From an uncultured Ignavibacteriales bacterium (GTDB lineage: Bacteria; Zixibacteria; MSB-5A5; GN15; FEB-12): a DNA stretch of 64,000 nucleotides. Below, in pieces: positions 7,388 to 37,464 of this stretch (within the stretch, counting starts at the first letter, position 1; each line of letters opens with the position of its first letter). The stretch is taken from the NCBI GenBank assembly GCA_964526835.1, contig CAZGMK010000008.1:5290-69289 (forward strand). The letters are read 5' to 3'. The position numbers and the translations under genes were made by a program. The notes under the pieces were generated by a model. It saw only the letters and a list, made by a program, of their open reading frames with translations, did no database searches and had not been told where the DNA came from.

Positions 7388-7819
7388 ATGAAGACTTTTA
7401 TACCAAAGGTTGACCCGAGCCGCAAGAAATGGTGGCTGGTCGACATGCAGGATGCCATCCTCGGCCGAGCGGCCGTGAAGGTGGCCACAGTTCTCAGGGG
7501 TAAACACACGCCGCTGTTTACACCGCATCTGGATACGGGCGATCATGTGGTCGTCGTCAACGCCTCCAGGATGAAAATAAGCGGGGCCAACAAGCCGCAG
7601 CAGTTGGCATACTACCGCTACAGCGGCTATCCGGGCGGCCTGAACAGGGTCCCCTACGAGAAGATGATCCAGACCAAGCCGGAGGAAGTGTTCCGTCTGG
7701 CGGTGCGTCGCATGCTGCCCAAGAATCGTCTTGGCCGCAAGATGTTCAAGAAGCTGCATGTTTACGCCGGTCCGAATCACCCCCACAAGGCTCAGAAACC
7801 CGAAGCTATTAAACTGTAG
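7388..7819 (+). CDS. rplM: 50S ribosomal protein L13
   Basis: 143 aa. The motifs KKWWLVD..GR.A..VA..LRGKH and the rplM-rpsI gene pair support the call. Confidence 0.97.
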   Translation: MKTFIPKVDPSRKKWWLVDMQDAILGRAAVKVATVLRGKHTPLFTPHLDTGDHVVVVNASRMKISGANKPQQLAYYRYSGYPGGLNRVPYEKMIQTKPEEVFRLAVRRMLPKNRLGRKMFKKLHVYAGPNHPHKAQKPEAIKL

Positions 7820-7838
7820 ATCAGATTAACGGAAACGT

Positions 7839-8231
7839 ATGGCGCAAGAAGTATACTCAGCGACCGGACGCCGCAAGCGCTCTGTTGCCCGTGTGGTTGT
7901 CAAACCGGGCAAAGGCGAATTCATGGTTAACGGGCGCAGTCTCAACGCGTATCTGACTCGTGAGACACTGGCTAACGTCGCTTCGCAAGCCCTTGACGTC
8001 GCTCAGGCCAAGGGCACTGTTGACGTTGTCTGCACAGCCAACGGCGGCGGTATTTCCGGCCAGGCCGGCGCGATTCGTCTGGGTTTGGCCCGCGCTCTCC
8101 TGCAGATGAATGAAAACCTGCGTGAGCCCCTGCGCAAAGAGGGCTTGTTGACTCGCGACCCGCGTCAGGTTGAGCGCAAGAAGTACGGCCAGCCGAAGGC
8201 TCGTAAGCGCTTCCAGTACTCGAAGCGTTAA
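7839..8231 (+). CDS. rpsI: 30S ribosomal protein S9
   Basis: 130 aa. It contains GRRK.S.ARV and the C-terminus KARKRFQYSKR. Confidence 0.97.
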   Translation: MAQEVYSATGRRKRSVARVVVKPGKGEFMVNGRSLNAYLTRETLANVASQALDVAQAKGTVDVVCTANGGGISGQAGAIRLGLARALLQMNENLREPLRKEGLLTRDPRQVERKKYGQPKARKRFQYSKR

Positions 8232-8360
8232 AGTGTGAGTATCCCCGCTTCGGCGGGGAAATAAACAGTCTCGGTCGACTCAGGCGGAGGTCCCCTTCGA
8301 GGTCCGCGCTGGGGATGACGCCGGGGCGAAGTAGCAACCATTCAATATCAAAGGTCTTTC

Positions 8361-9218
8361 ATGATTTCACCGGAAGTCAAGGAAATGCTGGAGGCAGGGG
8401 TGCATTTCGGGCATCAGACCCGTCGCTGGAACCCCAAGATGAAGCCGTTCATCTTCACAGCGCGCAACGGCATCTATATCATCGATCTTCAGAAGACGAT
8501 CAACTCCATCAGGCAGGCCCAGGAGAAGGTCCGCGAGGTGGTACAGCGGGGCAAGACCATCCTGATGGTCGGCACTAAGAAGCAGGCCAAGGAAGTCATC
8601 GATGTCGAGGCCAGGCGAGCGGGAGCGTTCTACGTCACCGAACGCTGGCTCGGCGGCATGTTGACCAACTACGAGACGATCCGCGAGTCCATCAAGAAGC
8701 TTAAAGACATCGAGAAGATGCATGAGGATGGCCGCATAGAGAAGTTCAAGAAGAAAGAGCGGCTCCGGCTGGAACGTCAGGCCGAGAAGCTGAACAAGGT
8801 CCTTGGCGGCATAAAGGACATGAATTTCCTGCCGGGACTGGTTGTCGTGGTCGATGCCCGAAAAGAGAAGATCGCGGTGGCGGAGGCCTCAAAGCTGGGT
8901 ATCCCGATTGTCGGTATTGTCGATACCAACGCCGATCCCGACCCCATCGATTTTCCGATAGCGGCCAATGACGATGCGATCAAGTCTATCCGTGTCATTA
9001 TCCGGCGTCTTGTCGACGCCGCCGTCGAGGCGCGTCAGAGCGTGACACAGGAGGAGATTGAGCGCGCCACGGAAGAGGACAGGGGCAGGGTCGCCGAGAC
9101 AGTCTCGGTCGGCGGCGAAGAGGAAGAGGAACCCAAGGCGAATACGGCTCCCGCCCCGGGCCGGAGAAGACCCGAAACACAGAAAAGCGAAGCCGGCAGG
9201 GCGACCGACACAGAATAA
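8361..9218 (+). CDS. rpsB: 30S ribosomal protein S2 (with an acidic/basic C-terminal tail)
   Basis: [18 protein letters not shown] is a hallmark of S2. At 285 aa it carries an E-rich C-terminal extension. Confidence 0.96.
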
Positions 9219-9229
9219 GGGTGACATTG

Positions 9230-9823
9230 ATGGCAATTACCGCACAGATGGTCAAAGAACTCCGGGAGAAGACCGGGGCCGGCATGATGGATTGCAAGAA
9301 GGCCCTTACCGAGACCGAAGGCGACTTCGACAAGGCGGTGAAGATGCTTCGCGAGAAAGGCATCGCCAAGGCTGCCAAGCGCGAGGGCCGCGCCACGGCC
9401 GAGGGCGTAGTGGCTTCTTATATACATCCCGGCGACAAATTGGGGGTGCTGGTCGAAGTCAACTGCGAAACCGACTTTGTGGCACGCACCGAGCAGTTCC
9501 GGAGTTTCGCCCGCGATATCGCCATGCATGTGGCTGCGGTCAATCCCCTCTTTGTCAATCGCGACCAGGTTGACCCCTCGGTGATCGAGAAGGAGAAGGA
9601 TATCTATCGTCAGCAGGCGCTCAACGACGGCAAGCCGGAGAAGGTGGTCGAGAAGATCATCGAAGGCCGCCTGGAGAAGTACTACGCCGAGATCGTTCTG
9701 CTGGAACAGCCATTTGTCAAGGACAATGACAAGACTGTCGAGGAGTACCTGAAGGAGACGATAGCGGCGGTTGGCGAGAATGTCCAGATAAACCGCTTCG
9801 CACGTTTCCGTCTGGGTGAGTGA
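9230..9823 (+). CDS. tsf: Elongation factor Ts (short form)
   Basis: MAITAQMVKELREKTGAGMMDCKKAL. The ORF-track start at 9221 is an upstream GTG; the ATG at 9230 follows aagggtga. Confidence 0.93.
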   Translation: MAITAQMVKELREKTGAGMMDCKKALTETEGDFDKAVKMLREKGIAKAAKREGRATAEGVVASYIHPGDKLGVLVEVNCETDFVARTEQFRSFARDIAMHVAAVNPLFVNRDQVDPSVIEKEKDIYRQQALNDGKPEKVVEKIIEGRLEKYYAEIVLLEQPFVKDNDKTVEEYLKETIAAVGENVQINRFARFRLGE

Positions 9824-10551
9824 GCATGGAGTCTGACTCTGATTTACCCGCGTATAAGCGGGTTCTCGTCAAAATCTCCGGAGAGGCTCTCATGGGGCCC
9901 GACAGTTTCGGGCTCCATTGGGAGACTGTCCAGAACATCTGCAGAGACATTCGTCAGGCGCGGGAGCTGGGTGTGGAGATGGGTCTGGTTGTGGGGGGCG
10001 GCAATATTTTCCGCGGCCTGCACGCGGCCGACCGCGGTATGGACCGAGTCACCGCCGACAACATGGGTATGCTCGCCACCGTCATCAATTCCCTGGCGCT
10101 GATGGATAATCTGGAACAGATGGGTATCTATACTCGAGTCATGTCGGCGATCAATATGGAAGCCATCGCGGAGCCGTACATCCGGCGTCGAGCGGTACGC
10201 CACATGGAGAAAGGGCGCCTGGTTATATTCGCCGCCGGAACCGGGAATCCCTATTTCAGCACCGATACCGCCGCCAGTCTTCGAGCCATGGAAATTGACG
10301 CCGATCTGCTGATCAAGGCGACCAACGTAGACGGCGTGTACTCCGAGGATCCTCGGAAGAACCCGGATGCTGAGTTCTGTCGTGAACTTACTTACCACGA
10401 GGTGCTGACCCGGCAGCTCCGGGTGCTGGACTCGACTGCGGTGTCTCTGCTGATGGATAACGCCATCCCGCTGAGGGTTATTGCTCTGACCGAGCCGGGT
10501 AATCTGGCCCGCGCCATCAAGGGAGAGCCGGTGGGGACCCTGATAAGCTGA
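9820..10551 (+). CDS. pyrH: UMP kinase
   Basis: KRVLVKISGEAL and VVGGGNIFRG motifs. The gene order tsf-pyrH-frr is conserved. Confidence 0.95.
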   Translation: MSMESDSDLPAYKRVLVKISGEALMGPDSFGLHWETVQNICRDIRQARELGVEMGLVVGGGNIFRGLHAADRGMDRVTADNMGMLATVINSLALMDNLEQMGIYTRVMSAINMEAIAEPYIRRRAVRHMEKGRLVIFAAGTGNPYFSTDTAASLRAMEIDADLLIKATNVDGVYSEDPRKNPDAEFCRELTYHEVLTRQLRVLDSTAVSLLMDNAIPLRVIALTEPGNLARAIKGEPVGTLIS

Positions 10552-10585
10552 AGGAAATCACTATCTCAGCATAGGAGGCTTAGAT

Positions 10586-11143
10586 ATGCTCGATGCAATC
10601 TACAAAGACACTAAGGAGCGGATGCAGAAGACCATCGAGGCTCTCAACCGAGAATTCGGCGCTATCCGCACCGGCAAAGCCTCGGTCCATCTTCTCGACA
10701 CCGTCCAGGTCGACGCCTACGGCAGCAAGATGCCGATCAATCAACTGGCCACCATCTCCACTCCCGAGCCGAGGCTCCTGGTGGTGCAGGCCTACGACAA
10801 GTCAACTGTCGGCGATATCATCAAGGCCATCCAGGTCGCTGACCTGGGACTGAATCCAGTGCCCGAGGGACAGACCATTCGCATTCCGGTTCCGGCCCTC
10901 AACGAGGAAAGGCGCAAGGAGCTGGTCAGGCTTTGCAAGAACACGGCTGAAGACTCGCGTGTGGCTATCCGAAACATTCGCCGGGACGCCAACGATCAGA
11001 TCAAGCAGGCCCAGAAAGACAAGGATATCTCCGAGGACCTGGAGAAGCGTGGTCTGGACAAGATCCAGGAAATCACCGATGAGCACATCAAGAAAGTTGA
11101 TGAGCTGCTGGAGAAGAAGGAGAAGGACGTCATGGAGGTGTGA
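10586..11143 (+). CDS. frr: Ribosome recycling factor
   Basis: 185 aa, with the motifs F..IRTG.A....LD.V.V.AYG. Confidence 0.95.
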   Translation: MLDAIYKDTKERMQKTIEALNREFGAIRTGKASVHLLDTVQVDAYGSKMPINQLATISTPEPRLLVVQAYDKSTVGDIIKAIQVADLGLNPVPEGQTIRIPVPALNEERRKELVRLCKNTAEDSRVAIRNIRRDANDQIKQAQKDKDISEDLEKRGLDKIQEITDEHIKKVDELLEKKEKDVMEV

Positions 11144-11174
11144 CGCCTGCTGAGACGAATCAGTTCAAATGCAG

Positions 11175-11200
11175 AGGCCCGGAGATATATCTCCGGGCCT
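11175..11200. terminator. Bidirectional hairpin between convergent frr and the CBS gene
   Basis: The perfect palindrome aggcccggagat/atctccggggcct-type stem (aggcccggagatatatctccgggcct) lies between the two stop codons. Confidence 0.6.
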
Positions 11201-11237
11201 TATTGCTGGCAGTCGCCAGCCGTATCCAATCGGCCGA

Positions 11238-11681
11238 CTACTCTTGCGCGCTGAAACCGTCGATGTAGATCCGCAGGTACCGGTTTTCCACTTTCATATG
11301 CTTCATCTGGCGCCGTACGATATCCGTCTGGGATACCAAACCGATCAGTTTCTTTCCATCCATGATGGGGATGTGGCGAATCCAGTTTTCGCTCATCACC
11401 CCGGCGATGTAGTCGATTTCGTCGTCCGTCACGCCCACGATCAATTTCGTCGTCATGAAGTCCTTAACCGGTATTTCAGCAAAATCGGAGCGATGTTCAA
11501 AGATGAGTTTGAATATATCCTTGTCGGACACGATCCCGACCAGATCATCGCCCTTCATAACCGGCAGGCAACTGATCTGATTATCGATCAGAAGGGTCAT
11601 GGCCTCATGAGCCGTTGTCTCCGGCGTGGCTACGATAATCGGACGCGATTCCTTGGCGTCGAGTAAGTCTCGCACGAGCAT
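11238..11681 (-). CDS. CBS-domain pair protein
   Basis: It has two CBS-like repeats (PVM.GDDLVGIVS..DI and IPIMDGKKLIGLVSQTDI). I chose the internal start MLVRDLL at 11681, preceded by aaggag. The longer track ORF (to 11855) would overlap the ilvE start. Confidence 0.8.
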   Translation of the reverse strand: MLVRDLLDAKESRPIIVATPETTAHEAMTLLIDNQISCLPVMKGDDLVGIVSDKDIFKLIFEHRSDFAEIPVKDFMTTKLIVGVTDDEIDYIAGVMSENWIRHIPIMDGKKLIGLVSQTDIVRRQMKHMKVENRYLRIYIDGFSAQE

Positions 11682-11848
11682 CGGCAAGCTCCTTTGTGTC
11701 AGTTCACGTTTGCTGACTCCAAAATAGTGAGCGGTATGGTTGCTGAGCAAGCTTTTTGGCCGCGGCGACCGGACTTGATATTGCCGCTGATTACATGTAT
11801 GTTCCACAGAGTGGAGACTGCGAACGCCCAACCTCGTCAGGAGGACAT

Positions 11849-12793
11849 ATGCCATTCGAAAAGACCAAATTCATCTGGATGAACGGGAAGCTGGTGCCCT
11901 GGGACGATGCCAGGATTCATGTCTTATCGCACGTAGTCCATTACGGCTCGTCGGTCTTCGAGGGGATGCGCACTTATGTTACGCCCAGGGGGACCGTCTG
12001 CTTCAGGCTGAGAGACCACTCGACCCGGCTTAAGAACTCGGCAAAGATTTACCGTATGGACATCCCGTACACTTGCGAGCAGATCGACCAGGCCATTCTC
12101 GACCTGATCGGCGCTAACCAGATAAAGGGCTGCTATGTTCGACCGGTTGCCTTTCGGGGCTATGAATCGCTCGGCGTTGACCCCACGCCATGCCCGGTCG
12201 ACCTGGCCATAGCCACCTGGCCGTGGGGGGCGTATCTGGGCGCCGAGGCATTGGAGAAGGGGGTGGCGGTTTGTTTTTCCTCATGGCAGAGACTGGCCCC
12301 TAATACAATGCCGGCCATGGCCAAGGCGGGCGCCAACTATATGAATAGCCAGTTGATTAAGATGGAAGCCGTCCGGCACGGCTATGCCGAGGGTATTGCG
12401 CTGGACCGCAACGGCTTCGTCTCTGAAGGATCGGCCCAGAACTTGTTCCTCTGGCATAACAACAAGCTGCTCACGCCGCCCCTGACGGCCTCCATCTTGC
12501 CGGGCATCACACGCGATACGGTCATGCAAATCGCTCGCGAAATGGGTCTGGCAGTTGTCGAACAGAACATCGCGCGCGAGATGTGCTATGTGGCTGACGA
12601 GGCCTTCTTCACCGGGTCTGCGGCCGAGATCACGCCGATCAGCAGTATCGACGGGCTCAAGATCGGCGCCGGTCGGGCCGGCCGAATCACCAAGAAGCTG
12701 CAGGCGGCCTTTTTCGATATTGTCGAGGGACGCGCCGAGGACAAGCACAACTGGCTGACCGTCGTGCCCGAGTACAAAGGAGAGGTGGTCTGA
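11849..12793 (+). CDS. ilvE: Branched-chain amino acid aminotransferase (class IV)
   Basis: [37 protein letters not shown] chose the ATG at 11849, which follows aggagga. Confidence 0.9.
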
Positions 12794-13233
12794 TGAAAGT
12801 GGCGATCGCGGCCGACCATCGGGGCCTCAAAGTCAAGGACCAGGTAAATGGCATCCTGGAATCACACGGACATGAGGTTGTCGACGTAGGCACCCAGTCA
12901 GAGGACTCGGTGGATTATCCGGACTTCGGTCTGAAGGCCTCGCGGATGGTCGCAAGGGGAGAGGTCGACCGGGCGATCCTGGTCTGCTGGACCGGCAATG
13001 GTATGGGTATAGCGGCTAACAAGGTCAAGGGCGTCAGGGCGGGGATTGCCGTAAATCGCGACATGGCCTACTTCACCCGGCTTCACAATGACGCCAACGT
13101 GCTCGTTCTCGGTTCGAAGTACATCCCTGCTGATAAGCTGGAGGAGGTCGTGATGGCTTTTGTTACAACCGATTTCGAGGGTGGCCGTCATGTGGTCAGG
13201 CTGCAGAAGATCGCTGCGGCCGAAAAGGAATGA
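12793..13233 (+). CDS. rpiB: Ribose-5-phosphate isomerase B
   Basis: 146 aa. [11 protein letters not shown], then DYPDF, then C.TG.G..IAANK is the RpiB/LacAB signature. Confidence 0.92.
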   Translation: MKVAIAADHRGLKVKDQVNGILESHGHEVVDVGTQSEDSVDYPDFGLKASRMVARGEVDRAILVCWTGNGMGIAANKVKGVRAGIAVNRDMAYFTRLHNDANVLVLGSKYIPADKLEEVVMAFVTTDFEGGRHVVRLQKIAAAEKE

Positions 13234-13253
13234 ACTGGAAAGGAGGGATTGGA

Positions 13254-13526
13254 ATGAAATCAAAGCCAGGATACATTGTCTGGATGGCAGCTCTGGCTAC
13301 TATCGTGGCGGTGACTGCCGGCTGTGACAGGTCGTCGGACAACCAGTGCAACACCTTCAGTGTGGAGGCCGGAAGCTTCGAGTCGCTCACCTGGAAGGTG
13401 CATCAGGGCGACGAGTTGTGCCGGTGGCTCGGCTACCGCGACTACTGGGGCGGGTTGTCGGATACAGTTGTGAGGGAGGGCGGTGACGAAGTCCACTACA
13501 TTACCAAGCTAACCTGCTGCAAATAA
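13254..13526 (+). CDS. Small lipoprotein, hypothetical
   Basis: MKSKPGYIVWMAALATIVAVTAGC has a lipobox-like VTAGC. aggaggg lies 6 nt upstream of the ATG at 13254. Confidence 0.55.
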   Translation: MKSKPGYIVWMAALATIVAVTAGCDRSSDNQCNTFSVEAGSFESLTWKVHQGDELCRWLGYRDYWGGLSDTVVREGGDEVHYITKLTCCK

Positions 13527-13544
13527 CGGCCACAGGCCGGCAAC

Positions 13545-13575
13545 AAAAAAGCCCCGCCGTCGGGCGGAGCTTTTC
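13545..13575. terminator. Bidirectional rho-independent terminator (lipoprotein gene / rpmG)
   Basis: aaaaaa-gccccgcc-gtcg-ggcggagc-tttt. A GC stem is flanked by an A-run and a T-run between convergent genes. Confidence 0.75.
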
Positions 13576-13601
13576 GAATTCAGCGATAGTCTCGGCTGGT
13601 G

Positions 13602-13766
13602 TTACCGAGTCTCCTTGAAGGTGACATGCTTGCGCAGGACCGGGTCGTACTTGCGGGTTTCCATACGATCCGGGTGGGTCCGCTTGTTCTTCGTAGTATA
13701 GTAAGTATACGGACTCTCGGTGCTGCGAAGCTTCACCTGAACACGAATCTTGGTCTTCTTGGCCAT
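13602..13766 (-). CDS. rpmG: 50S ribosomal protein L33
   Basis: My hand translation of the minus strand gives [54 protein letters not shown] (54 aa). YTT.KNKR....L.L.KYDP..R.HV.FKE is the L33 signature. It falls below the ORF-track length cutoff. Confidence 0.9.
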
Positions 13767-13840
13767 CTCAAATCCTCTATTCTGTCACTCCGGCCACGGC
13801 CGGAAAAGTCGTTCCTGTGCCGTTTATCGACAAGACACAT

Positions 13841-13869
13841 ATAATACCTAAGGCTTGATAATCTGTCAA
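13841..13869 (-). promoter_or_regulatory. Sigma-70 promoter for rpmG
   Basis: The minus strand reads TTGACA, a 17-nt spacer, then TATTAT, about 75 nt upstream of the rpmG start. Confidence 0.6.
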
Positions 13870-13885
13870 GAAATCAATTGGGGCT

Positions 13886-13907
13886 GTCAAGGCAAAGTAG
13901 AAATGTC
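13886..13907. repeat. Outer 22-nt segment of the left inverted repeat
   Basis: gtcaaggcaaagtagaaatgtc is the exact reverse complement of 16252-16273. About 195 bp (13910-14106) separates it from the rest of the left repeat, and that stretch is absent from the right copy. Confidence 0.85.
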
Positions 13908-13947
13908 GGGTTGGCCGCAAGACAGAAATGTCCTATTTTGTTAGCCG

Positions 13948-13970
13948 GTCAGGATCCTTGCGGCCCTGAC
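13948..13970. repeat. REP-like hairpin, second copy
   Basis: gtcaggatc-cttgc-ggccctgac belongs to the same family as 215-237. It lies inside the 195-bp stretch specific to the left repeat arm. Confidence 0.55.
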
Positions 13971-13997
13971 ATTTCCGCAGTCTGTAGCGGCGAACAA

Positions 13998-14597
13998 TCA
14001 TTCGCCGTTCGGCCATTCCCGACGGACAACACGCCCGGCTCTTTGCGTCCTTGTCGTCGCACCATAAGCTGATTCGTGGCTACGTTCTGAGGCGCTGTTG
14101 GCTTCACCGGGTAGTTCACCGCTGCTGTGGGTAAATCGCCAGTGGTTGCGCTTCGAACACAAATCGGCTTGCGGTAGAGAGGTTGTCATGCCATGCTCAG
14201 TCAGGGATGTTTCGAAGCAGGTTCGACTAGAGGAGTCTCGCTCAACGGATGACCTATGCGGAGTTTGAGAGGCAATAGCGGTGATGGGGCTTTCCCACAG
14301 CAAGCTGTGGGCCACCCAGCGGAGAAACGTCTCATCGTCTCCGTTCATGAGGTTGAACCTGGAGTCGTAGAACACCCAGTCGTCGTCCCAGTCATAGTTG
14401 TTGATGCGGTGTTGCCAGATGTCGCCTGCCGCATCGTCGAAACGGTGATCGGTTGACGGCAGGCTCGAAAGGTCGAAGAGGCGTGCGAGAAACGCCGGCT
14501 CCTCGAGGCGACCGCACCAGTTGACTTTCTCGACGTGGATTGCGTCGATGATGTCGCGTCGAGTGATCTCAGAAATTTGCATGCGCGTGCTTCCCAC
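13998..14597 (-). pseudogene. Truncated or chimeric gene: conserved N-terminal domain (~90 aa) fused in frame to repeat-derived sequence
   Basis: Residues 1-~90 (ITRRDIIDAI..WCGRLEEPAFLARLFDLSSLPSTDHRFDDAAGDIWQHRINNYDWDDDWVFYDSRFNLMNGDDETFLRW) look like a real conserved domain. From 14322 downward the ORF reads through the left repeat copy. The same frame in the right copy hits a stop, so that part is probably not genuine coding sequence. Confidence 0.5.
14107..14322. mobile_element. MITE-like ~215-bp element, left copy
   Basis: It aligns by eye to the reverse complement of 16036-16252, with identical runs of 54 nt (14264-14317), 30 nt and 16 nt. Its two ends are imperfect inverted repeats (gggtagttcaccgctgctgtggg versus the reverse complement gggtggcccacagcttgctgtggg). 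Confidence 0.6.
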
Positions 14598-14611
14598 GTT
14601 GCGGCCTAACG

Positions 14612-15382
14612 TCAGAGTTGAGGCACCCCGTCTTTGCCGCCGTTGCCTCCAGCGACTTGTTCGGCTGTTGTTGTTTGCTTCAGTTCCTTCCTTAACGAGT
14701 AGCTCTTGAAGATTCCAGTCCCATTCACCTTCTGAATTTCATCAGTGATTGGATCAATCGGAACGACTGAATCGGCAAAGCTCGCATAGTAAAGATGAGG
14801 AACTCCGCGCTCGCAGATAAACTCAAGGAGGCTAATGTCGTGCTTCGAGAACTCACCGTCGTAAAAGCCGGCCGATCGGAAATCTGCCTCACTGGGAATG
14901 GTCATTCGGTAGCGCGAGGGATCAGGATTCGGGTGGTTATGCAGAATCGCGATAGCATCTGGCCTGAGCGACCGAATCGCTGACTTGAGTGAGTGATCTC
15001 GAAGAAACGACCACACTTTCGTCCCATCAGGTCCTTTGTTCCACCAGAGGCGCCGAACATGAAGGGAATTGATGAATGCGATGACAATCCACTCATGCTT
15101 CTTGTACTTGAGCAACCCTGCGATGCGAGCAGGCGAATCACGGTAGCCCAAATCACAACCAACAAATTCACCTTGGCTTTTCATAGCTTTCTTCTCGGCG
15201 GCGTCCGCTGGTCGTTGCATAGTCGAAAAGTCGAACTTCCTGAGCGCTCGGATTCTCTGTCGCTTCATTGATAGTGCAAGGATTTCCTGATTGTTCAGTG
15301 GATGGCGGTGCCGATAAACATCAACGGCCCAGATAAGGACGAAGAAAGCTACAACTGCACCGGAGAACCAGAACGCTTCCAT
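14612..15382 (-). CDS. Membrane-anchored JAB/MPN+ (RadC-like) metallopeptidase
   Basis: 256 aa. It has an N-terminal hydrophobic helix (FWFSGAVVAFFVLIWAV). JAMM-like motifs are an upstream Glu (KKHEW), then ILHNHPNPDPSRYRMTIPSEAD (HxH ... SxxD). Confidence 0.65.
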   Translation of the reverse strand: MEAFWFSGAVVAFFVLIWAVDVYRHRHPLNNQEILALSMKRQRIRALRKFDFSTMQRPADAAEKKAMKSQGEFVGCDLGYRDSPARIAGLLKYKKHEWIVIAFINSLHVRRLWWNKGPDGTKVWSFLRDHSLKSAIRSLRPDAIAILHNHPNPDPSRYRMTIPSEADFRSAGFYDGEFSKHDISLLEFICERGVPHLYYASFADSVVPIDPITDEIQKVNGTGIFKSYSLRKELKQTTTAEQVAGGNGGKDGVPQL

Positions 15383-15494
15383 TTCTTATCCTTACGGCTT
15401 CTTACGGCTAAGGGTAGCGGCCCTATGATCGTGGACTGGATTGTTCAGCATGGGCTCTCAATCGTCATTCTGGTGGGTGCCCAACGCTGGAGTT

Positions 15495-15522
15495 AAGCCG
15501 CGGCGCGTAGCGCCGTCGGCTT
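15495..15522 (-). other. Very stable GC hairpin between the 118-aa gene and the JAB gene
   Basis: aagccg-cggcgc-gta-gcgccg-t-cggctt forms a 12-bp stem with one bulge and a triloop. There is no U-tract on the minus strand, so it could be an attenuator, a processing site or a terminator. Confidence 0.5.
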
Positions 15523-15549
15523 GAACGATTTGTTATGTGCACACCCGAA

Positions 15550-15906
15550 TTATTGGATTTGTTTTAGCAGCTTTTCAATGTGTGGCAATAAATGCTTAAT
15601 CCAAGGCCGATTTGTCATATTTTCAAGATCGCTCTCAGAGAATATCTTGCGGGTTATGTCATAGTATTCTTTGTATTCGACCAAAAACCATATGGCAGCT
15701 ATTTGCTCTGACATATTTGGAGTTGACGAACCTTTACGCTTACCAGAAATGACGCCAATAAGATCCATGTAAGTCTTGTACCTACTCTCTTTCAGCTCCC
15801 GATTTCGCGTGTCCAGCCATTTGATAAATGCAAACAACCCCGCAGATACGGCAATAATGAAACCGAGAATGTCCTTATTTTGAGTAATGAAATCTAGAAA
15901 CATCAC
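15550..15906 (-). CDS. Small AT-rich membrane protein, hypothetical
   Basis: 118 aa with one predicted TM helix (ILGFIIAVSAGLFAFI). It is visibly AT-rich compared with its neighbours. I recognise no family. Confidence 0.55.
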   Translation of the reverse strand: MMFLDFITQNKDILGFIIAVSAGLFAFIKWLDTRNRELKESRYKTYMDLIGVISGKRKGSSTPNMSEQIAAIWFLVEYKEYYDITRKIFSESDLENMTNRPWIKHLLPHIEKLLKQIQ

Positions 15907-16035
15907 AGAATCTCAATATTGTGAACCCATAACAATAATTAGATTGATCCGCATAAGATGCCGGATTCCTCGTTTTTGTCCGTATAAGACACCTTCATGA
16001 ACTCTGCAAAAGATGATTTAACCCATTGTGACTCG

Positions 16036-16252
16036 CCGCCGGGTGGCCCACAGCTTGCTGTGGGAAAGCCCCATCACCGCTATTGCCTCTCAAAATCCAC
16101 ATAGGCCATCCGCCCTCTGAGACTCCTCTAGTCGAACCTGCTTCGAAATGTCCCTGTCTGAGCATAGCATGACAACCTCTCTTGCGCAAGCCAATTTGTG
16201 TTCGAAACACAACCGCTGACGATGTACCCACAGCATAGCTGAGAGCTACCGG
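16036..16252. mobile_element. MITE-like ~215-bp element, right copy (inverted relative to 14107-14322)
   Basis: Terminal inverted repeats are ccgggtggcccacagcttgctgtggg (16039-16064) and the reverse complement of cccacagcatagctgagagctaccgg (16227-16252). The inner TIR is itself a hairpin (cccacag-cttg-ctgtggg). There is no conserved reading frame between the copies. Confidence 0.6.
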
Positions 16253-16273
16253 ACATTTCTACTTTGCCTTGAC
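16252..16273. repeat. Outer 22-nt segment of the right inverted repeat
   Basis: gacatttctactttgccttgac is the exact reverse complement of 13886-13907. It ends in an outward-facing TTGACA. Confidence 0.85.
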
Positions 16274-16289
16274 ACGGGTTCTTTGCCGG

Positions 16290-16318
16290 TTGACCACATA
16301 CGGCCATTTGAGTACATT
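16290..16318 (+). promoter_or_regulatory. Candidate sigma-70 promoter for glyA
   Basis: TTGACC, a 17-nt spacer, then TACATT, about 32 nt upstream of the glyA ATG. Confidence 0.45.
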
Positions 16319-16350
16319 GGCCGAAAGTGACTTAGATCGGAGCTGAAGCC

Positions 16351-19703: not shown

Positions 19704-19751
19704 CTTTGAGCTGCCCCGGCGGTAGATTGTATCACGATAAGTGATTAGTCA

Positions 19752-34299: not shown

Positions 34300-35712
34300 A
34301 TGGAGCTTAGGAAGATGAAGTACACGGTTCTGGTTGTCGATGACGATACGCTGGTAAACGAGTTCCTTACTGAGACCCTCGAGCGCGCCGGCTACGAATG
34401 CCGTGCCGCGATCTCCGGTGAAGAGGCGATGCGTCTCTTCGTCGACAAGCCGACCGACATCGTGCTGACCGATCTCAAGATGCCCGGAATGTCGGGTATT
34501 GAAGTGATCGAACAGGTCAAGAACGTCAACCCCGAGACCGTCGTTGTGATGATGACCGCTTACGGCACAATCGAAACTGCGGTCAAGGCCATCAAGCTCG
34601 GGGCTTACGACTTCCTGCTCAAGCCTGTACTTCCAGAGCCTCTGGAGCACCTGATGAGTCGGGCGACCGAGATTCTCAACCTGCGCTCGGAGAACGCCCG
34701 GATGCGCCAGGACCTGCAGCGCAAGTTCCAGAACATCGTCGGCAAGTCCAGGCAGATGGAGGCGGTCTTTGACTTAATCCGCTCCGTTGCCGACGCTCGC
34801 TCGACGGTCATGATAACCGGGGGCAGCGGTACCGGCAAAGAACTGGTAGCCCGCGCCATCCACTATACATCGAATCGCAAGAACGCCCCCTTCATCAAGC
34901 TCAATTGCGCCGCCTTGCCGGAGACGCTTGTCGAAGCAGAGTTGTTCGGCTACGAAAAAGGCGCCTTCACGGATGCCAAGAAGACCCATCGCGGGCGGTT
35001 TGAGCTTGCCGACGGCGGTACTCTCTTGCTCGATGAGATATCGGAAATGCCGCTTAACCTCCAATCCAAGCTGCTGCGAGTGATTCAAGAGCGAGAGTTC
35101 GAGCGCGTCGGATCATCGGAGACCATTGCCGTGGATGTGCGCCTGATAGCAACATCAAACCGGGACCTCAAGGCCTATGTCAAGAACGGACGATTTAGAG
35201 AGGACCTCTATTACCGGCTGAATGTCATCCCGATTCACCTGTGTCCGCTTGAAGAGCGCAAAGAGGATATCCCGCTTCTGGTACAGCACTTTATTGACAA
35301 GTACAATGAAGAGAACAACAAGCAGATCAAGGGTATCGACTCCGAGGCGCTGAAGCTCTTCATGAAGTACCATTGGCCGGGGAACGTCCGCGAGCTGGAA
35401 AACCTGATCGAGCGGGCGGTGGTGACGTCACGCGGGGATTGCTTACGTGAGGACGACTTTCCTTCCGAGCTCGCCATGGGGCCGGTGGCCGATGAGCTCC
35501 CGGAGCTCAAAGTCCCGATCAGCCTCGAGGAAGGCAGCAAGTACCTGATTCTCAAGACCCTGGAGAGGTACGACGGCAACAAGACCCGAGCCGCCGAGGC
35601 GCTCGGCATAACGACACGGACGATTCGCAATAAGCTGGCCGAATACCGCTCGGATGGCGAGGAGCAGACGGATACTCAGGATCGCGACGACACCGTCTCG
35701 GCCAACCATTAG
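34300..35712 (+). CDS. Sigma-54-dependent response regulator (NtrC family; FlrC/FleR-like)
   Basis: A receiver ([17 protein letters not shown]) is followed by an AAA+ domain ([25 protein letters not shown]). A C-terminal Fis-type HTH is present. An alternative start lies at 34315. Confidence 0.93.
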
Positions 35713-35811
35713 CGTCACCGCCGGGGCCTCGAGCGCGCCGGCGCCCGTTTCACACAGAAACGCAGCAGGGGAGGGGCACCCTGTTTTTGCGGCAGAAGAT
35801 TGCATTTTGGC

Positions 35812-35838
35812 TACATTCTGAACAGGGAGTGCCGATAC
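35812..35838 (+). promoter_or_regulatory. Sigma-28 (FliA)-type promoter candidate for motAB
   Basis: TACA, 15 nt, then GCCGATAC, against the consensus TAAA-N15-GCCGATAA. It lies about 60 nt upstream of motA. Confidence 0.45.
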
Positions 35839-35896
35839 TTGAAACAGTGGCTATGGTCCGCAAAATACGGGTCAGGCAGCTCGGAACAGGCACTCT

Positions 35897-36661
35897 ATGG
35901 ATATTGCGACAATAATAGGACTACTCACGTCAGTCGGAGCCATTGGGTTGGCCTTCAGCATGGAAGGCGGAAACCTGGATGCCGTTTTTCTTACCGCCCC
36001 GATTCTTATCGTCCTGGGCGGTACCCTGGGCGCCACGACCGTGACCACTTCCATCGATACTGTGACCAGGGTGCCGATGTTCTTGAAGGTGGCTCTCGTC
36101 AGGCGGGTCTATCCGCTCGAGCCGACCATCCAGCGGGTGGTTCGCCTGGCCGAGAAGGCTCGCCGAGAGGGGATTCTCGGTCTTGAGGCTGAGCTCAAGA
36201 ACATCGGCCACCCGTTCTTCCGCAAGGCCCTGCAACTGGTCATAGACGGTACGGAGGTTACGGTCCTCAGGGAGGTTCTCGAGACCGATATCGCCTACCT
36301 GGAGGACCGCCATCGTCGAGGCATCGAGTTCTTCCAGAAGGCCGGAGGTTTCGCCCCCACTATGGGCATTCTCGGTACTGTCCTGGGACTCGTGCACACC
36401 CTGGCCAACACGGACGACGCCGCCCGCATGGCCTCGGCGATCGCCTCAGCCTTCATTGCCACACTGTGGGGCGTCGGGATCGCCAACCTGTTCTTCCTGC
36501 CGATTTCCGATAAGCTGCGCCGTCGCCACCAGGAGGAGGTCGCCTTCCAGGAACTCATCATGGAGGGTGTAATAGCGCTGCAGTCGGGTGACACGCCGCG
36601 AAACATACGTACCAGGCTCCTGTCGTTCGTGCCCGCCCGCCAGCGCACGGGTGACCTGTGA
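35897..36661 (+). CDS. motA: Flagellar stator protein MotA
   Basis: 254 aa with four TM segments. The motifs G.APTMGILGTV.GL and A..AFIATLWGV are MotA/TolQ/ExbB-type. Confidence 0.92.
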   Translation: MDIATIIGLLTSVGAIGLAFSMEGGNLDAVFLTAPILIVLGGTLGATTVTTSIDTVTRVPMFLKVALVRRVYPLEPTIQRVVRLAEKARREGILGLEAELKNIGHPFFRKALQLVIDGTEVTVLREVLETDIAYLEDRHRRGIEFFQKAGGFAPTMGILGTVLGLVHTLANTDDAARMASAIASAFIATLWGVGIANLFFLPISDKLRRRHQEEVAFQELIMEGVIALQSGDTPRNIRTRLLSFVPARQRTGDL

Positions 36662-37464
36662 TGAAGCACCGCCGCAAACGAAGAAATGGCGAGGACGAGA
36701 ATGTCGACCGCTGGCTGCTGACCTACGCGGACATGATTACCCTGCTGCTGGCGTTCTTCATTGTCATGTACTCGATTTCCCAGCTCGACGCCAAGAAGTT
36801 CGGTAAGATGGCCGAGGCTCTTAATGGCGTACTACGCGGCGGACCATCGATATTCGACAAGTACATAGAACCCCAGGCCAGCCAGGGACACGGCCTGTTG
36901 AAATTCGGTAACCTCCGAATGATTCAGAAGCTGGTCGAGGAAAAATTCGAGAAGCTGGGGCGATCCGAAGAAGTGATCACCGAGATCACCGAGCGAGGTC
37001 TGGTCGTTCACATTGTCGAATCAGCCCTCTTTCCGACCGGGAGCGCCGAATTGCAGCCCAGGTCGATGGAAGTGCTCGACCTGATTGCACGCCGAATAGT
37101 CGGCATTCCAAACCACATCAGGATCGAGGGACACACCGATGACCGCCCCATCCAAACGGCGCGGTACCCCTCCAACTGGGAGCTTTCGTCGGCTCGCGCA
37201 ACTGAGGTCGTCCGCTACTTCGTCGACAATCACGGCGTTGAGCCGGATCGTATTTCAGCGCTGGGCTATGGCAGTTACCGGCCGGTCAAGCCCAATAACT
37301 CAATCGAGAACCGGGCGAGGAATCGCCGCGTGGACGTTGTCATACTGACCATGGAACTCTCGCTCAAAGAGCCCAGCTCGCAGTTTTACACCTTCGCCGA
37401 AGAAGAACCGGAATTACCTCCATCCGAGGAAAACTTTTCCGTAATGTCACCCGACAGCATCTAG
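36658..37464 (+). CDS. motB: Flagellar stator protein MotB (OmpA-like peptidoglycan-binding C-terminus)
   Basis: The N-terminus W.LTYADMITLLLAFF carries the conserved Asp. The C-terminal OmpA-like motifs are GHTD, N.ELS..RA and NRRV. Confidence 0.92.
   Translation: MMKHRRKRRNGEDENVDRWLLTYADMITLLLAFFIVMYSISQLDAKKFGKMAEALNGVLRGGPSIFDKYIEPQASQGHGLLKFGNLRMIQKLVEEKFEKLGRSEEVITEITERGLVVHIVESALFPTGSAELQPRSMEVLDLIARRIVGIPNHIRIEGHTDDRPIQTARYPSNWELSSARATEVVRYFVDNHGVEPDRISALGYGSYRPVKPNNSIENRARNRRVDVVILTMELSLKEPSSQFYTFAEEEPELPPSEENFSVMSPDSI

Follow-up and report, generated by a model that had tools for sequence, protein, structure and literature searches.

The 64-kb window, the whole stretch of DNA analysed, raises the question of what three genes enclosed by long inverted repeats are doing between the good promoters of rpmG and glyA. 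An earlier note on this DNA offered two readings, a composite, non-autonomous mobile cassette and a decayed conflict/defence module. Here the structure is interpreted as a decayed, non-autonomous cassette derived from an insertion sequence (IS), and each of its two inverted repeats is probably a copy of the right-end (IRR-type) arm of an IS1202-family IS ('ISNCY family' transposase at NCBI). The IS1202 family was formerly the IS1202 group of ISNCY.

Synteny in relatives, a check which the earlier note had proposed, shows that the island is absent from them. The genome of one relative (L091, approximately 85% nucleotide identity) is collinear with positions 7604-13886 of the window; its rpmG side is empty, and homology stops at the left tip of the repeats, at 13884/5. 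In more distant relatives glyA directly follows rpiB. The island had been placed between rpmG and glyA, but compared with the distant relatives the inserted stretch is wider, approximately 13234-16350, and takes in a 98-aa ORF and rpmG itself. Two further ideas were rejected. A conserved glyA leader or a promoter duplication is contradicted by the lack of any similarity between the arm and the sequences upstream of glyA in relatives. Integration at a tRNA or tmRNA was dismissed because the window has a single tRNA, tRNA-Gly at 19751.

The inverted repeats, described as approximately 240 bp long, are real, and both their arms and their tips were recovered by repeat search and BLAST (Table 1). 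The inner parts (14116-14325 and 16033-16242) are 88% complementary over 210 nt and the tips are 96% identical over 27 nt. The right copy runs unbroken from 16033 to 16274 (242 nt), while the left one (441 nt) is interrupted by a block at approximately 13908-14108. Neither contains a transposase coding sequence, and BLAST found no third arm copy in the window. Within the 210-nt block the 54-, 30- and 16-nt stretches of identity were reproduced, and the 22-nt run is the tip. The claim that the remaining differences are mostly transitions is barely true, since the 26 mismatches in the ungapped 210-nt block comprise 14 transitions and 12 transversions. These are spread 10/8/8 over the codon positions, with a conservative substitution pattern in no frame, so the arm is not a coding repeat. 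Nor is it a structured RNA: there was no Rfam match at the gathering threshold or at E ≤ 10, and neither strand folds better than its shuffles (z = -0.14 and -1.2). A decayed 3' half of the adjacent AbiJ_NTD3 gene was likewise rejected, as tblastn with nine full-length homologues matched residues 1-94/105 only. The block specific to the left arm begins with the canonical IS end sequence, and we therefore infer that the right arm carries a deletion, which would have taken place between the CGGGT microhomologies seen at 13907-13911 and 14108-14112; the direction is taken from the family consensus.

Table 1. Features of the rpmG-glyA locus (positions in the window).
Feature	Position	Strand	Remarks
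rpmG promoter (native)	13841..13869	-	TTGACA-17-TATTAT, 11/12; -35 starts 15 nt outside left tip
Left tip, IS1202-family right-end-type terminal repeat	13885..13911		TGTCAAGGCAAAGTAGAAATGTC...; 26/27 identical to right tip
Putative transposase-binding 17-mer, left tip	13892-13908		1 mismatch to consensus
Left-arm-specific block, ~200 nt	13908..14108		Absent from right arm; begins with canonical IS end sequence
Second subterminal 17-mer	13917..13933	-	GGACATTTCTGTCTTGC, then TATTTTG; 3 mismatches
Left arm, shared inner segment	14109..14325		Non-coding; 88% identical to 16033-16242
AbiJ_NTD3 gene, 5' half, truncated pseudogene	14322..14597	-	Pfam PF18860, E = 5.8e-35
256-aa JAB protein, N-terminal TM helix and RadC-like JAB/MPN+ domain	14612..15382	-	151 homologues
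GC-rich hairpin between 118-aa and JAB genes	15493..15522	-	No U-tract
118-aa AT-rich protein, N-terminal hydrophobic stretch (read from translation)	15550..15906	-	42 homologues
Right arm, shared inner segment	16033..16242		Reverse complement of 14116-14325
Right tip, IS1202-family right-end-type terminus	16248..16274		...GGACATTTCTACTTTGCCTTGACA; one 17-mer site
17-mer site, right tip	16251-16267		0 mismatches
glyA promoter	16290..16318	+	TTGACC-17-TACATT, 9/12; -35 starts 15 nt outside right tip

The identity of the repeats is revealed by their tips. On its outer side each arm finishes with 23-27 nt (TGTCAAGGCAAAGTAGAAATGTC) that are the conserved right end of the IS1202 family; they start TGTCAAGG, and their length fits the approximately 24-26-bp terminal inverted repeats of the family, which begin with 5'-TGT. 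The outward-facing TTGACA, correctly noticed earlier at each repeat end, is the conserved terminal hexamer of this right end. The family end consensus reads ...AAAACaGGACATTTCTACTTTGC-N8-GGACATTTCTACTTTGCCTTGACA, and the left arm has the canonical two-site architecture with 17-mers at 13892-13908 and 13917-13933. Three copies of the 17-mer are present in the window, always in the tips (chance expectation 0.08). IS sequence is demonstrable, however, only for the outer approximately 50 nt of the arms. The inner 190-390 nt have no match at all: a 25-mer from the hairpin core of the arm interior gave 0 matches in metagenome and viral contigs, and neither nhmmer nor blastn matched the interior to any of 120 related IS loci.

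An autonomous IS1202 element has one left-type and one right-type end, and a transposase with HTH and DDE domains (NF033594) and Q at E+7. In the window both termini are of the TTGACA (right) type and the left-type end (...GCGACA) is absent. No transposase ORF lies between the arms, and tblastn with six family transposases found no remnant in the 64 kb at E < 1, in agreement with the earlier observation that no transposase is enclosed. The term 'non-autonomous' thus fits, the repeats being mobile-element ends without a transposase. 'Composite' does not fit, as a composite transposon has two complete IS copies around its cargo and only arms of approximately 240-440 nt remain here, the outer 50 nt or so of them demonstrably IS. 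There is no target-site duplication either: the sequences on the two sides of the structure, GAAATCAATTGGGGC and CGGGTTCTTTGCCGG, bear no relation to each other, and neither of these 15-nt stretches is found again inside it.

Copies of the same end are found elsewhere. The 23-mer TGTCAAGGCAARNNAGAAATGTC, matched exactly by both tips, is present in at least 120 metagenome contigs, where it terminates the conserved end of two 17-mers and TTGACA. A transposase-type ORF of 427-464 aa reads toward this terminus in six of the 15 contigs whose interior was examined. Two of the six ORFs were scanned against NF033594 ('ISNCY family transposase', cut-off 250) and scored 380-406 bits; in each of them a Q follows the catalytic E at a distance of seven residues, a mark of the IS1202 family. 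On the transposase 5' side the full copies end in ...GGACATTATCAyTTTGCyGCsACA (left end). Many contigs end 50-166 nt inside the IS end, as expected for a multicopy repeat. In addition, the RefSeq plasmids pW11NP2 and pKP91 have the same architecture 3' of annotated ISNCY transposases, with ends 80-85% identical to the family consensus and approximately 80-85% identical to the tips in the window. Members of the IS1202 family are known to carry passenger genes, and in pKP91 an ISKpn21-like element of the same family contains the passenger GrpB.

Among the subgroups of the family these copies appear most like ISTde1, an assignment made on two direct repeats, in L125 (15 bp, in locally repetitive sequence) and in L139 (16/17 bp), the only ones in the family sample; most metagenome contigs spanning full IS copies have none. 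Shared with the ISTde1 subgroup are the terminal repeats of approximately 24-27 bp starting with 5'-TGT, the outward -35-like TTGACA at the right end, the repeated subterminal 17-mers, a host range that includes soil and peat phyla and, in the full copies, the 427-464-aa transposase (HTH and DDE, NF033594, Q at E+7) and the 15-17-bp direct repeats of the two copies mentioned. The window copy differs in having no transposase, no left-end (IRL-type) terminus and no 15-17-bp direct target repeats, both of its termini being of the right-end type.

The gene order of the cassette is as first described, and the gene next to the left repeat is indeed cut off there. Its AbiJ_NTD3 match covers profile positions 1-87 of 167 and stops at the repeat edge, and the mechanical ORF extends through the arm to 13998. 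Homologues carry on as FLRFLCETIHPVVRPD... to approximately 165 aa; tblastn did not find the C-terminal half. AbiJ-type proteins combine a complete N-terminal domain with a C-terminal effector (HEPN), and here no further domain follows downstream. The second gene had been called a TM-anchored JAB/MPN+ peptidase, and this call was borne out. Across 36 homologues the residues E97, H148, H150, S164 and D167, which form the E...HxH...S..D metal-site motif of JAB/MPN+ (JAMM) proteins, show either no variation or a conservation of at least 90%. Foldseek matched the AlphaFold model (pLDDT 89.8) to RadC 2qlc (prob 1.00, TM-target 0.64) and JAMM1 5ld9 (prob 1.00), and the protein is accordingly a predicted metallopeptidase with an MPN fold. 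The HNHP...PSxxD motif, the upstream Glu and the modelled 2qlc-like fold resemble RadC-like JAB/MPN+ proteins (PF04002). The window protein differs from these in its N-terminal TM helix and helical linker, in six extra residues between HxH and SxxD, and in being a lone gene in varied contexts that lies below Pfam detection (no family at E ≤ 0.1, hence below the PF04002 gathering score); its homologue P0119 carries PF04002. The 118-aa protein belongs to no Pfam, NCBIfam or PADLOC family, and its 42 homologues are scattered across phyla. The very stable GC hairpin is also real (-34.6 kcal/mol, z = -3.5 for the 81 nt at 15470-15550 of the minus strand) and gave no intrinsic-terminator call. The lower GC content claimed for the whole cassette is confirmed in the 118-aa gene (40-44%), is slight in the JAB gene (~50%) and is absent from the AbiJ fragment (~58%).

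Taken together, the cargo consists of unrelated, sporadically distributed accessory genes and is not a coherent defence system. Among the contigs searched, the exact JAB protein was found only on those of this same rpmG-glyA locus. Its homologues are lone genes in varied or housekeeping contexts without the other two cargo genes, those of the 118-aa protein are found alone between lysA and dapF, and the co-occurrence of the two genes, suggested earlier as a check, was not seen in any of ten other contexts. It is therefore very unlikely that a membrane protein, a membrane JAB peptidase and an AbiJ-like sensor form a functional conflict/defence module here, with the repeats being incidental. Such a module would agree with the occurrence of AbiJ_NTD3 in abortive-infection-type proteins, with JAB domains in several defence systems (Foldseek also matches BubCD 9ea4) and with a 118-aa homologue that adjoins a CBASS operon (L216). 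However, the neighbour of that homologue is not a JAB protein, the AbiJ_NTD3 domain is cut at 87 of 167 with no effector domain, and in PADLOC-DB 2.0 only this AbiJ stump had a match, a weak one to PDC-M01A (2.9e-5), PADLOC and NCBIfam both being negative for the JAB and 118-aa proteins. The decayed form of the module proposed in the earlier note is not upheld for the same reasons.

The promoters outside each repeat, regarded earlier as good sigma-70 promoters, are indeed good. Rather than being incidental, they represent the flank that characterises this IS family, which typically sits 15-16 bp upstream of a -35 box. In the window the -35 box is at offset 16 on both sides, and L091, the relative without the element, also has an intact rpmG promoter. 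Among 116 mutually dissimilar flanks of the IS end, from hosts with 35-69% GC, TTG is found at offset 16/17 in 50 (background 1.6% per position) and TTGAC at offsets 16-18 in 28 (background 0.08%). A -10-like TAnnnT follows 16-18 nt beyond the TTG in 36 of these 50 (background 2%), and an outward ORF comes next in 34 of 37 flanks. At the left end, a hand count from printed sequences gave TTG at offsets 15-17 in approximately 7 of 25 flanks, and the orientation of the IS relative to the promoter is biased rather than strict. We tentatively propose, at slightly less than even confidence, that one widespread subgroup within the IS1202 family finds its targets by reading sigma-70 promoters, a 15-16-bp staggered cut placing the TTGACA end against the -35 box. 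No description of promoter targeting for the IS1202 family, or of placement 15-16 bp upstream of -35 boxes for the ISTde1 subgroup, was found in the literature consulted. The ISAba32/ISAjo2 subgroup of the same family targets XerC/D (dif, pdif) sites. It, too, inserts in an oriented way and keeps a constant spacing to a DNA landmark that binds protein. In both cases the spacing is as long as the direct repeat, with 5 bp to the XerC arm in that subgroup and 15-16 bp to the -35 box in the present one. The differences are that a sigma-70-type promoter takes the place of the Xer site here, that the stagger is longer and that the orientation is not strict. By analogy with these relatives and XerC/D, the target might possibly be recognised through promoter-bound RNA polymerase or sigma.

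As for the origin of the structure, each arm would have reached its place by transposition, one at rpmG and the other at glyA, and in both cases 15 nt upstream of the -35 box of the native sigma-70 promoter. This would have taken two separate end-joining events: either two insertions, or one insertion and an intramolecular duplicative inversion. Later deletions would have removed the transposase gene together with the partner ends, the right arm also shedding approximately 200 nt, and AbiJ_NTD3 would have been truncated when an arm came to abut the gene. What remains without a transposase would be mobile, if at all, only with one supplied in trans. Against this explanation stand the missing target-site duplication, the link of only the outer approximately 50 nt of the arms to the IS family, and the inner endpoint that the arms share (14325 = 16033). 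The last of these implies that they descend from an already truncated unit, and two independent insertions with independent decay do not predict it.

The shared inner boundary and the intact TGT...ACA tips count in favour of a rival explanation, in which arm, cargo and arm form a single, non-autonomous mobile insertion cassette, with two IRR-type ends, which was mobilised in trans and arrived with its three passengers. The passenger genes known in the IS1202 family also speak for such a cassette, and so does L193, from an unrelated AT-rich organism, where cargo likewise lies in an element that has two TTGACA-type ends and no transposase. Like mobile insertion cassettes and transporter IS, the structure has IS-type inverted termini around passenger genes and no transposase. 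Nevertheless, we consider this origin unlikely. A 15-17-bp target duplication and a second copy, which would mark movement as a unit, are lacking, and the flanks are unrelated, with a separate promoter at offset 16 in each, an arrangement that one insertion alone does not create. Among the contigs searched the cassette is found at this locus only, no cargo gene lies near an IS end elsewhere (no IS-end motif was seen near the homologues), one passenger is a truncated gene, and the arms of 240-440 nt extend far beyond an IS terminal repeat. Still less probable is an invertible segment whose 210-nt repeats flip the cassette as a phase-variation switch, a possibility we regard as slight. The 54-nt identical run could support RecA-dependent inversion, and the Logan short-k assemblies break inside it and hence do not fix the orientation, but no site-specific invertase or recombinase is found in 11.5-19 kb, the 12% divergence of the arms shows that they are not homogenised, and flipping would leave the targets of the outward promoters unchanged because both arms are equivalent. 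Moreover, the IS origin already explains the repeats. A chimeric assembly join across the repeat is hardly credible. Most contigs spanning full family copies are without direct repeats, which suggests that chimeric joins are common, but every unique junction is recovered at 100% identity in Logan assemblies made independently from four runs, namely that between the rpmG flank and the left arm (L093, L094), the interior (L001) and that between the right arm and glyA (L002, L003). In addition, reads can tell the arms apart by their 26 differences in 210 positions.

With the interpretation as a decayed IS-derived cassette, what looked like an unexplained island, with its long inverted repeats and a suspiciously good promoter on each side, becomes a decayed IS structure, and the suggestion of a new defence system at this locus is removed. 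If promoter targeting is true, the IS would have a 'safe haven' just upstream of genes, and transposase-less derivatives such as those in this window and in L193 would park accessory genes between housekeeping promoters. If the fixed distance of 15-16 bp reflects target choice, the IS would be an example of promoter homing by a bacterial transposon, comparable to the homing of Ty1 and Ty3 to Pol III genes. Promoter homing, if true, would explain how the IS spreads without killing genes, would offer a natural route to rewiring the regions upstream of promoters, and might provide a tool for promoter-directed insertion.

The locus between rpmG and glyA is a decayed, non-autonomous derivative of the IS1202 family (formerly the IS1202 group of ISNCY) that brackets unrelated accessory genes, and it is no new defence system. 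The terminal 23-mer of its inverted repeats, TGTCAAGGCAARNNAGAAATGTC, was found in at least 120 metagenome contigs and one viral contig. In a common orientation these contigs read ...AAAAC-aGGACATTTCTACTTTGC-N8-aGGACATTTCTACTTTGCC-TTGACA|flank, and all similarity stops at TTGACA. Many of them end 50-166 nt inside the terminus, a pattern typical of multicopy repeats, at which assemblies break. Among the 15 long contigs with the interior listed, six have a single ORF of 427-464 aa just inside, reading toward the TTGACA end. Two of these ORFs were scanned and scored 380-406 bits against the NCBIfam model NF033594 ('ISNCY family transposase', with its cut-off at 250 bits), with Pfam rve and HTH domains, and both have Q seven residues past the catalytic E, which is a mark of the IS1202 family. 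Full family copies are 1.4-2.05 kb long and their opposite end differs (...GGACATTATCAyTTTGCyGCsACA). The direct repeats seen in two copies are 15 bp and 16/17 bp, a length range that defines the ISTde1 subgroup. Two RefSeq plasmids, pW11NP2 from Polaromonas and pKP91 from Klebsiella variicola, likewise have two 17-mers followed by TTGACA, 80-85% identical to the consensus; in both, this end is 3' of a gene with the annotation 'ISNCY family transposase'. The outward-facing TTGACA noticed earlier at each repeat is real and represents the conserved terminus of an IS end. It is accounted for by what the literature notes of IS with copy-out-paste-in transposition, whose right end typically has a -35 element pointing outward. 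In the ISKpn21-like element of pKP91 (34839-36956), a GrpB-family passenger comes after the ISNCY transposase gene and before the 2x17-mer plus TTGACA end; its gene order shows that IS1202-family passengers can sit in the right-end arm.

The ~240-bp inverted repeats were borne out by both repeat search and BLAST, and BLAST with the right copy as query revealed no third copy in the 64-kb window. The right copy is unbroken, and the left one has ~200 extra nt at about 13908-14108. The ungapped block has 26 mismatches, and their positions recover identical runs of 54, 30 and 16 nt; that the differences are mostly transitions held only marginally (14 transitions vs 12 transversions). The mismatches are spread 10/8/8 over codon positions and the repeat is therefore non-coding. 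The Rfam search of the arms gave no match, and on neither strand did they fold better than shuffled sequence. Only the outer ~50 nt are linked to the family: the inner part had no match in the 120 related IS loci, and a 25-mer from the arm interior had 0 matches in metagenome and viral contigs. The window has three occurrences of the 17-mer, each of them in a tip (chance expectation 0.08). The right arm has one 17-mer site, followed directly by sequence matching the left arm beyond 14108, and because CGGGT is also present at both ends of the missing segment, we infer that the right arm is a deletion derivative. Independent Logan assemblies reproduced all unique junctions; their contigs end within the 54-nt identical run, and either cassette orientation is compatible with them. 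The absence of a transposase inside the island extends to the whole 64-kb window, where neither a transposase nor a remnant of one was found.

Features of the rpmG-glyA locus (positions in the window)
Feature	Position	Strand	Basis
Tips of the arms	13885-13911 vs 16248-16274		27 nt, 96%; repeat search
Inner arm segments	14116-14325 vs 16033-16242		210 nt, 88% complementary; repeat search
Two-site end of left arm	13892-13908, 13917-13933, then TATTTTG		canonical layout
AbiJ_NTD3 fragment ORF	13998-14597	-	Pfam AbiJ_NTD3 E = 5.8e-35, profile positions 1-87 of 167
JAB gene	14612-15382	-	RadC-like fold and metal-site residues
118-aa gene	15550-15906	-	no family assigned; 42 homologues

The gene reported to have its conserved N-terminal domain cut off at the left repeat is the AbiJ_NTD3 ORF, the profile match of which ends at the arm edge. 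A set of 100 AbiJ_NTD3 homologues runs on as '...FLRFLCETIHPVVRPD...', reaching about 165 aa; the window copy departs from them at FLRW|VAHS, which is that edge. The missing half was not found in any frame of either arm, and the ORF is a truncated gene. All 100 homologues found (P0121-P0220) are at most 167 aa long, even where the contig spans 20-235 kb, and the point at which they end differs in many; the subfamily may consist of stand-alone domain proteins prone to truncation. The JAB protein had no Pfam match but has 151 homologues, spread over many phyla. In 36 homologues E97, H148, H150, S164 and D167 are fully or almost fully conserved, and its model (pLDDT 89.8) matches RadC 2qlc and archaeal JAMM1 5ld9 with probability 1.00, which supports its reading as a TM-anchored JAB protein. 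Profile searches placed the 118-aa protein in no known family, and its homologues are scattered. One of them (L216:3269-6110) is directly beside a CBASS pair (CD-NTase and Cap15), and next to it comes an unrelated protein of 250 aa that belongs to no Pfam family. The stable GC hairpin that separates the 118-aa gene from the JAB gene was confirmed (z = -3.5); it lacks a U-tract. The low GC ascribed to the whole cassette applies to the 118-aa gene (40-44%); the JAB gene is intermediate and the AbiJ fragment native.

The earlier note considered a conflict or defence module, which does not stand, as the cassette genes occur elsewhere without each other and PADLOC, run as that note proposed, matched only the AbiJ fragment among them, and weakly. 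Four contigs from other samples (L004-L007) match the JAB gene at 88% nt identity over exactly the ORF +/- 8 nt (window 14604-15389) and have unrelated flanks, which suggests a lone gene moving or exchanged without a visible vehicle. JAB homologues adjoin glycosyltransferase, LpxR/GlnS or ribosomal-protein genes, with the other two cassette genes absent there, and 118-aa homologues lie alone between lysA and dapF. Judged by such neighbourhoods, the three genes do not form a system. Taken alone, the cassette is a minor variation on a familiar type.

The nearest glyA genes (75-82% aa) are those of Zixibacteria/FCB-group MAGs. In five of these MAGs glyA-ThiBP-CutA-NrdR-TatC comes straight after rpiB, 140-200 bp away, and rpmG is there in none of the five; in other relatives the rpiB-glyA gap is filled by unrelated genes. 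Among Zixibacteria relatives the gap from rpiB (or ilvE) to glyA varies (L012, L019:3335-6000, L021:4730-6000); L019 has a response regulator plus further ORFs there, and L021 an FAD-type oxidoreductase-like ORF. A close relative (L091/L092) shows about 85% nt identity to the window and an identical L33 protein; the window protein (13602-13766) has no cysteines, i.e., it is of the zinc-independent type. L091 is collinear with window 7604-13886, and homology breaks off at 13884/5, at the base just outside the left tip. The element is absent from L091, where the rpmG promoter is conserved together with the 14 nt that precede its -35 box; past these come 500 nt, tRNA-Thr and then tuf-tRNA-Trp-secE-nusG-rplKAJL-rpoB, rpmG being divergent from these genes (L091:3600-6165). 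The 500-nt stretch from tRNA-Thr to the rpmG promoter (L091:5373-5880) is non-coding and has an inverted TGTCAAG...CTTGACA pair. Since homology with L091 ends at the left tip and the island is missing from the relatives, as the proposed synteny comparison revealed, the island is not ancestral, and collinearity breaks off sharply at the left tip. As rpmG is outside the ancestral rpiB-glyA order and divergent from the rpoB cluster in L091, a large rearrangement that begins at the IS tip separates the genome of the window from that of L091.

The target signature of the family is present at both outer junctions, so each of them most probably arose by transposition. Insertion of the whole unit in one step does not agree with the lack of a direct repeat around the structure, nor with the two 15-nt flanks, which are mutually unrelated and do not recur in the interior. 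The outer junctions could have been created by two separate insertions, or by one insertion followed by intramolecular duplicative inversion, which would give two inverted copies with the same end outward and without a flanking repeat. The common inner boundary of the arms (14325 = 16033) implies that they descend from an already truncated unit, which is not fully reconciled with this junction history. The transposase-less architecture with two TTGACA-type ends may recur: a 4.7-kb element of an AT-rich organism (L193:3081-7797) has a 30-nt perfect inverted repeat and encodes a 162-aa product that is hydrophobic at its N-terminus, together with an 849-aa UvrD-type helicase and a 228-aa RNase_T exonuclease. 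Like the window structure, it has TTGACA-type ends, neither a transposase nor a direct repeat, and promoters just outside, its promoter-like sites being 16 nt from both ends and one of them upstream of uvrB.

The good sigma-70 promoters described immediately outside each repeat were confirmed for rpmG (TTGACA-17-TATTAT) and glyA (TTGACC-17-TACATT), with the -35 boxes 15 nt from both tips (spacers 13870-13884 and 16275-16289). The rpmG promoter is kept in the element-free L091 and is therefore older than the element. In the IS1202-family group (loci L095-L215) the TTGACA end sits 15-16 bp upstream of sigma-70-type -35 boxes. Among the matches listed, 116 flanks of this end were compared, none at least 70% alike pairwise and with host GC from 35% to 69%. 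Counting outward from the TTGACA tip, TTG is at offset 16 or 17 in 50 of the 116 (background 1.6% per position) and TTGAC at offsets 16-18 in 28 (background 0.08%). TAnnnT follows 16-18 nt further outward in 36 of the 50 TTG-bearing flanks (background 2%), and in 34 of the 37 long ones an outward ORF starts within 300 nt. In L125 the 15-bp direct repeat adjoins the -35 box. No description of such promoter-proximal placement was found in the literature searched. The sister subgroup ISAba32 inserts 5 bp away from XerC sites; by analogy, this IS1202 subgroup may use the promoter as an insertion landmark, the distance equalling the direct-repeat length in both and the landmark being a XerC site there and a -35 box here. 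The promoters outside both repeats are thus accounted for by a family-wide placement next to promoters, and it is this placement, which explains the locus, that deserves attention.
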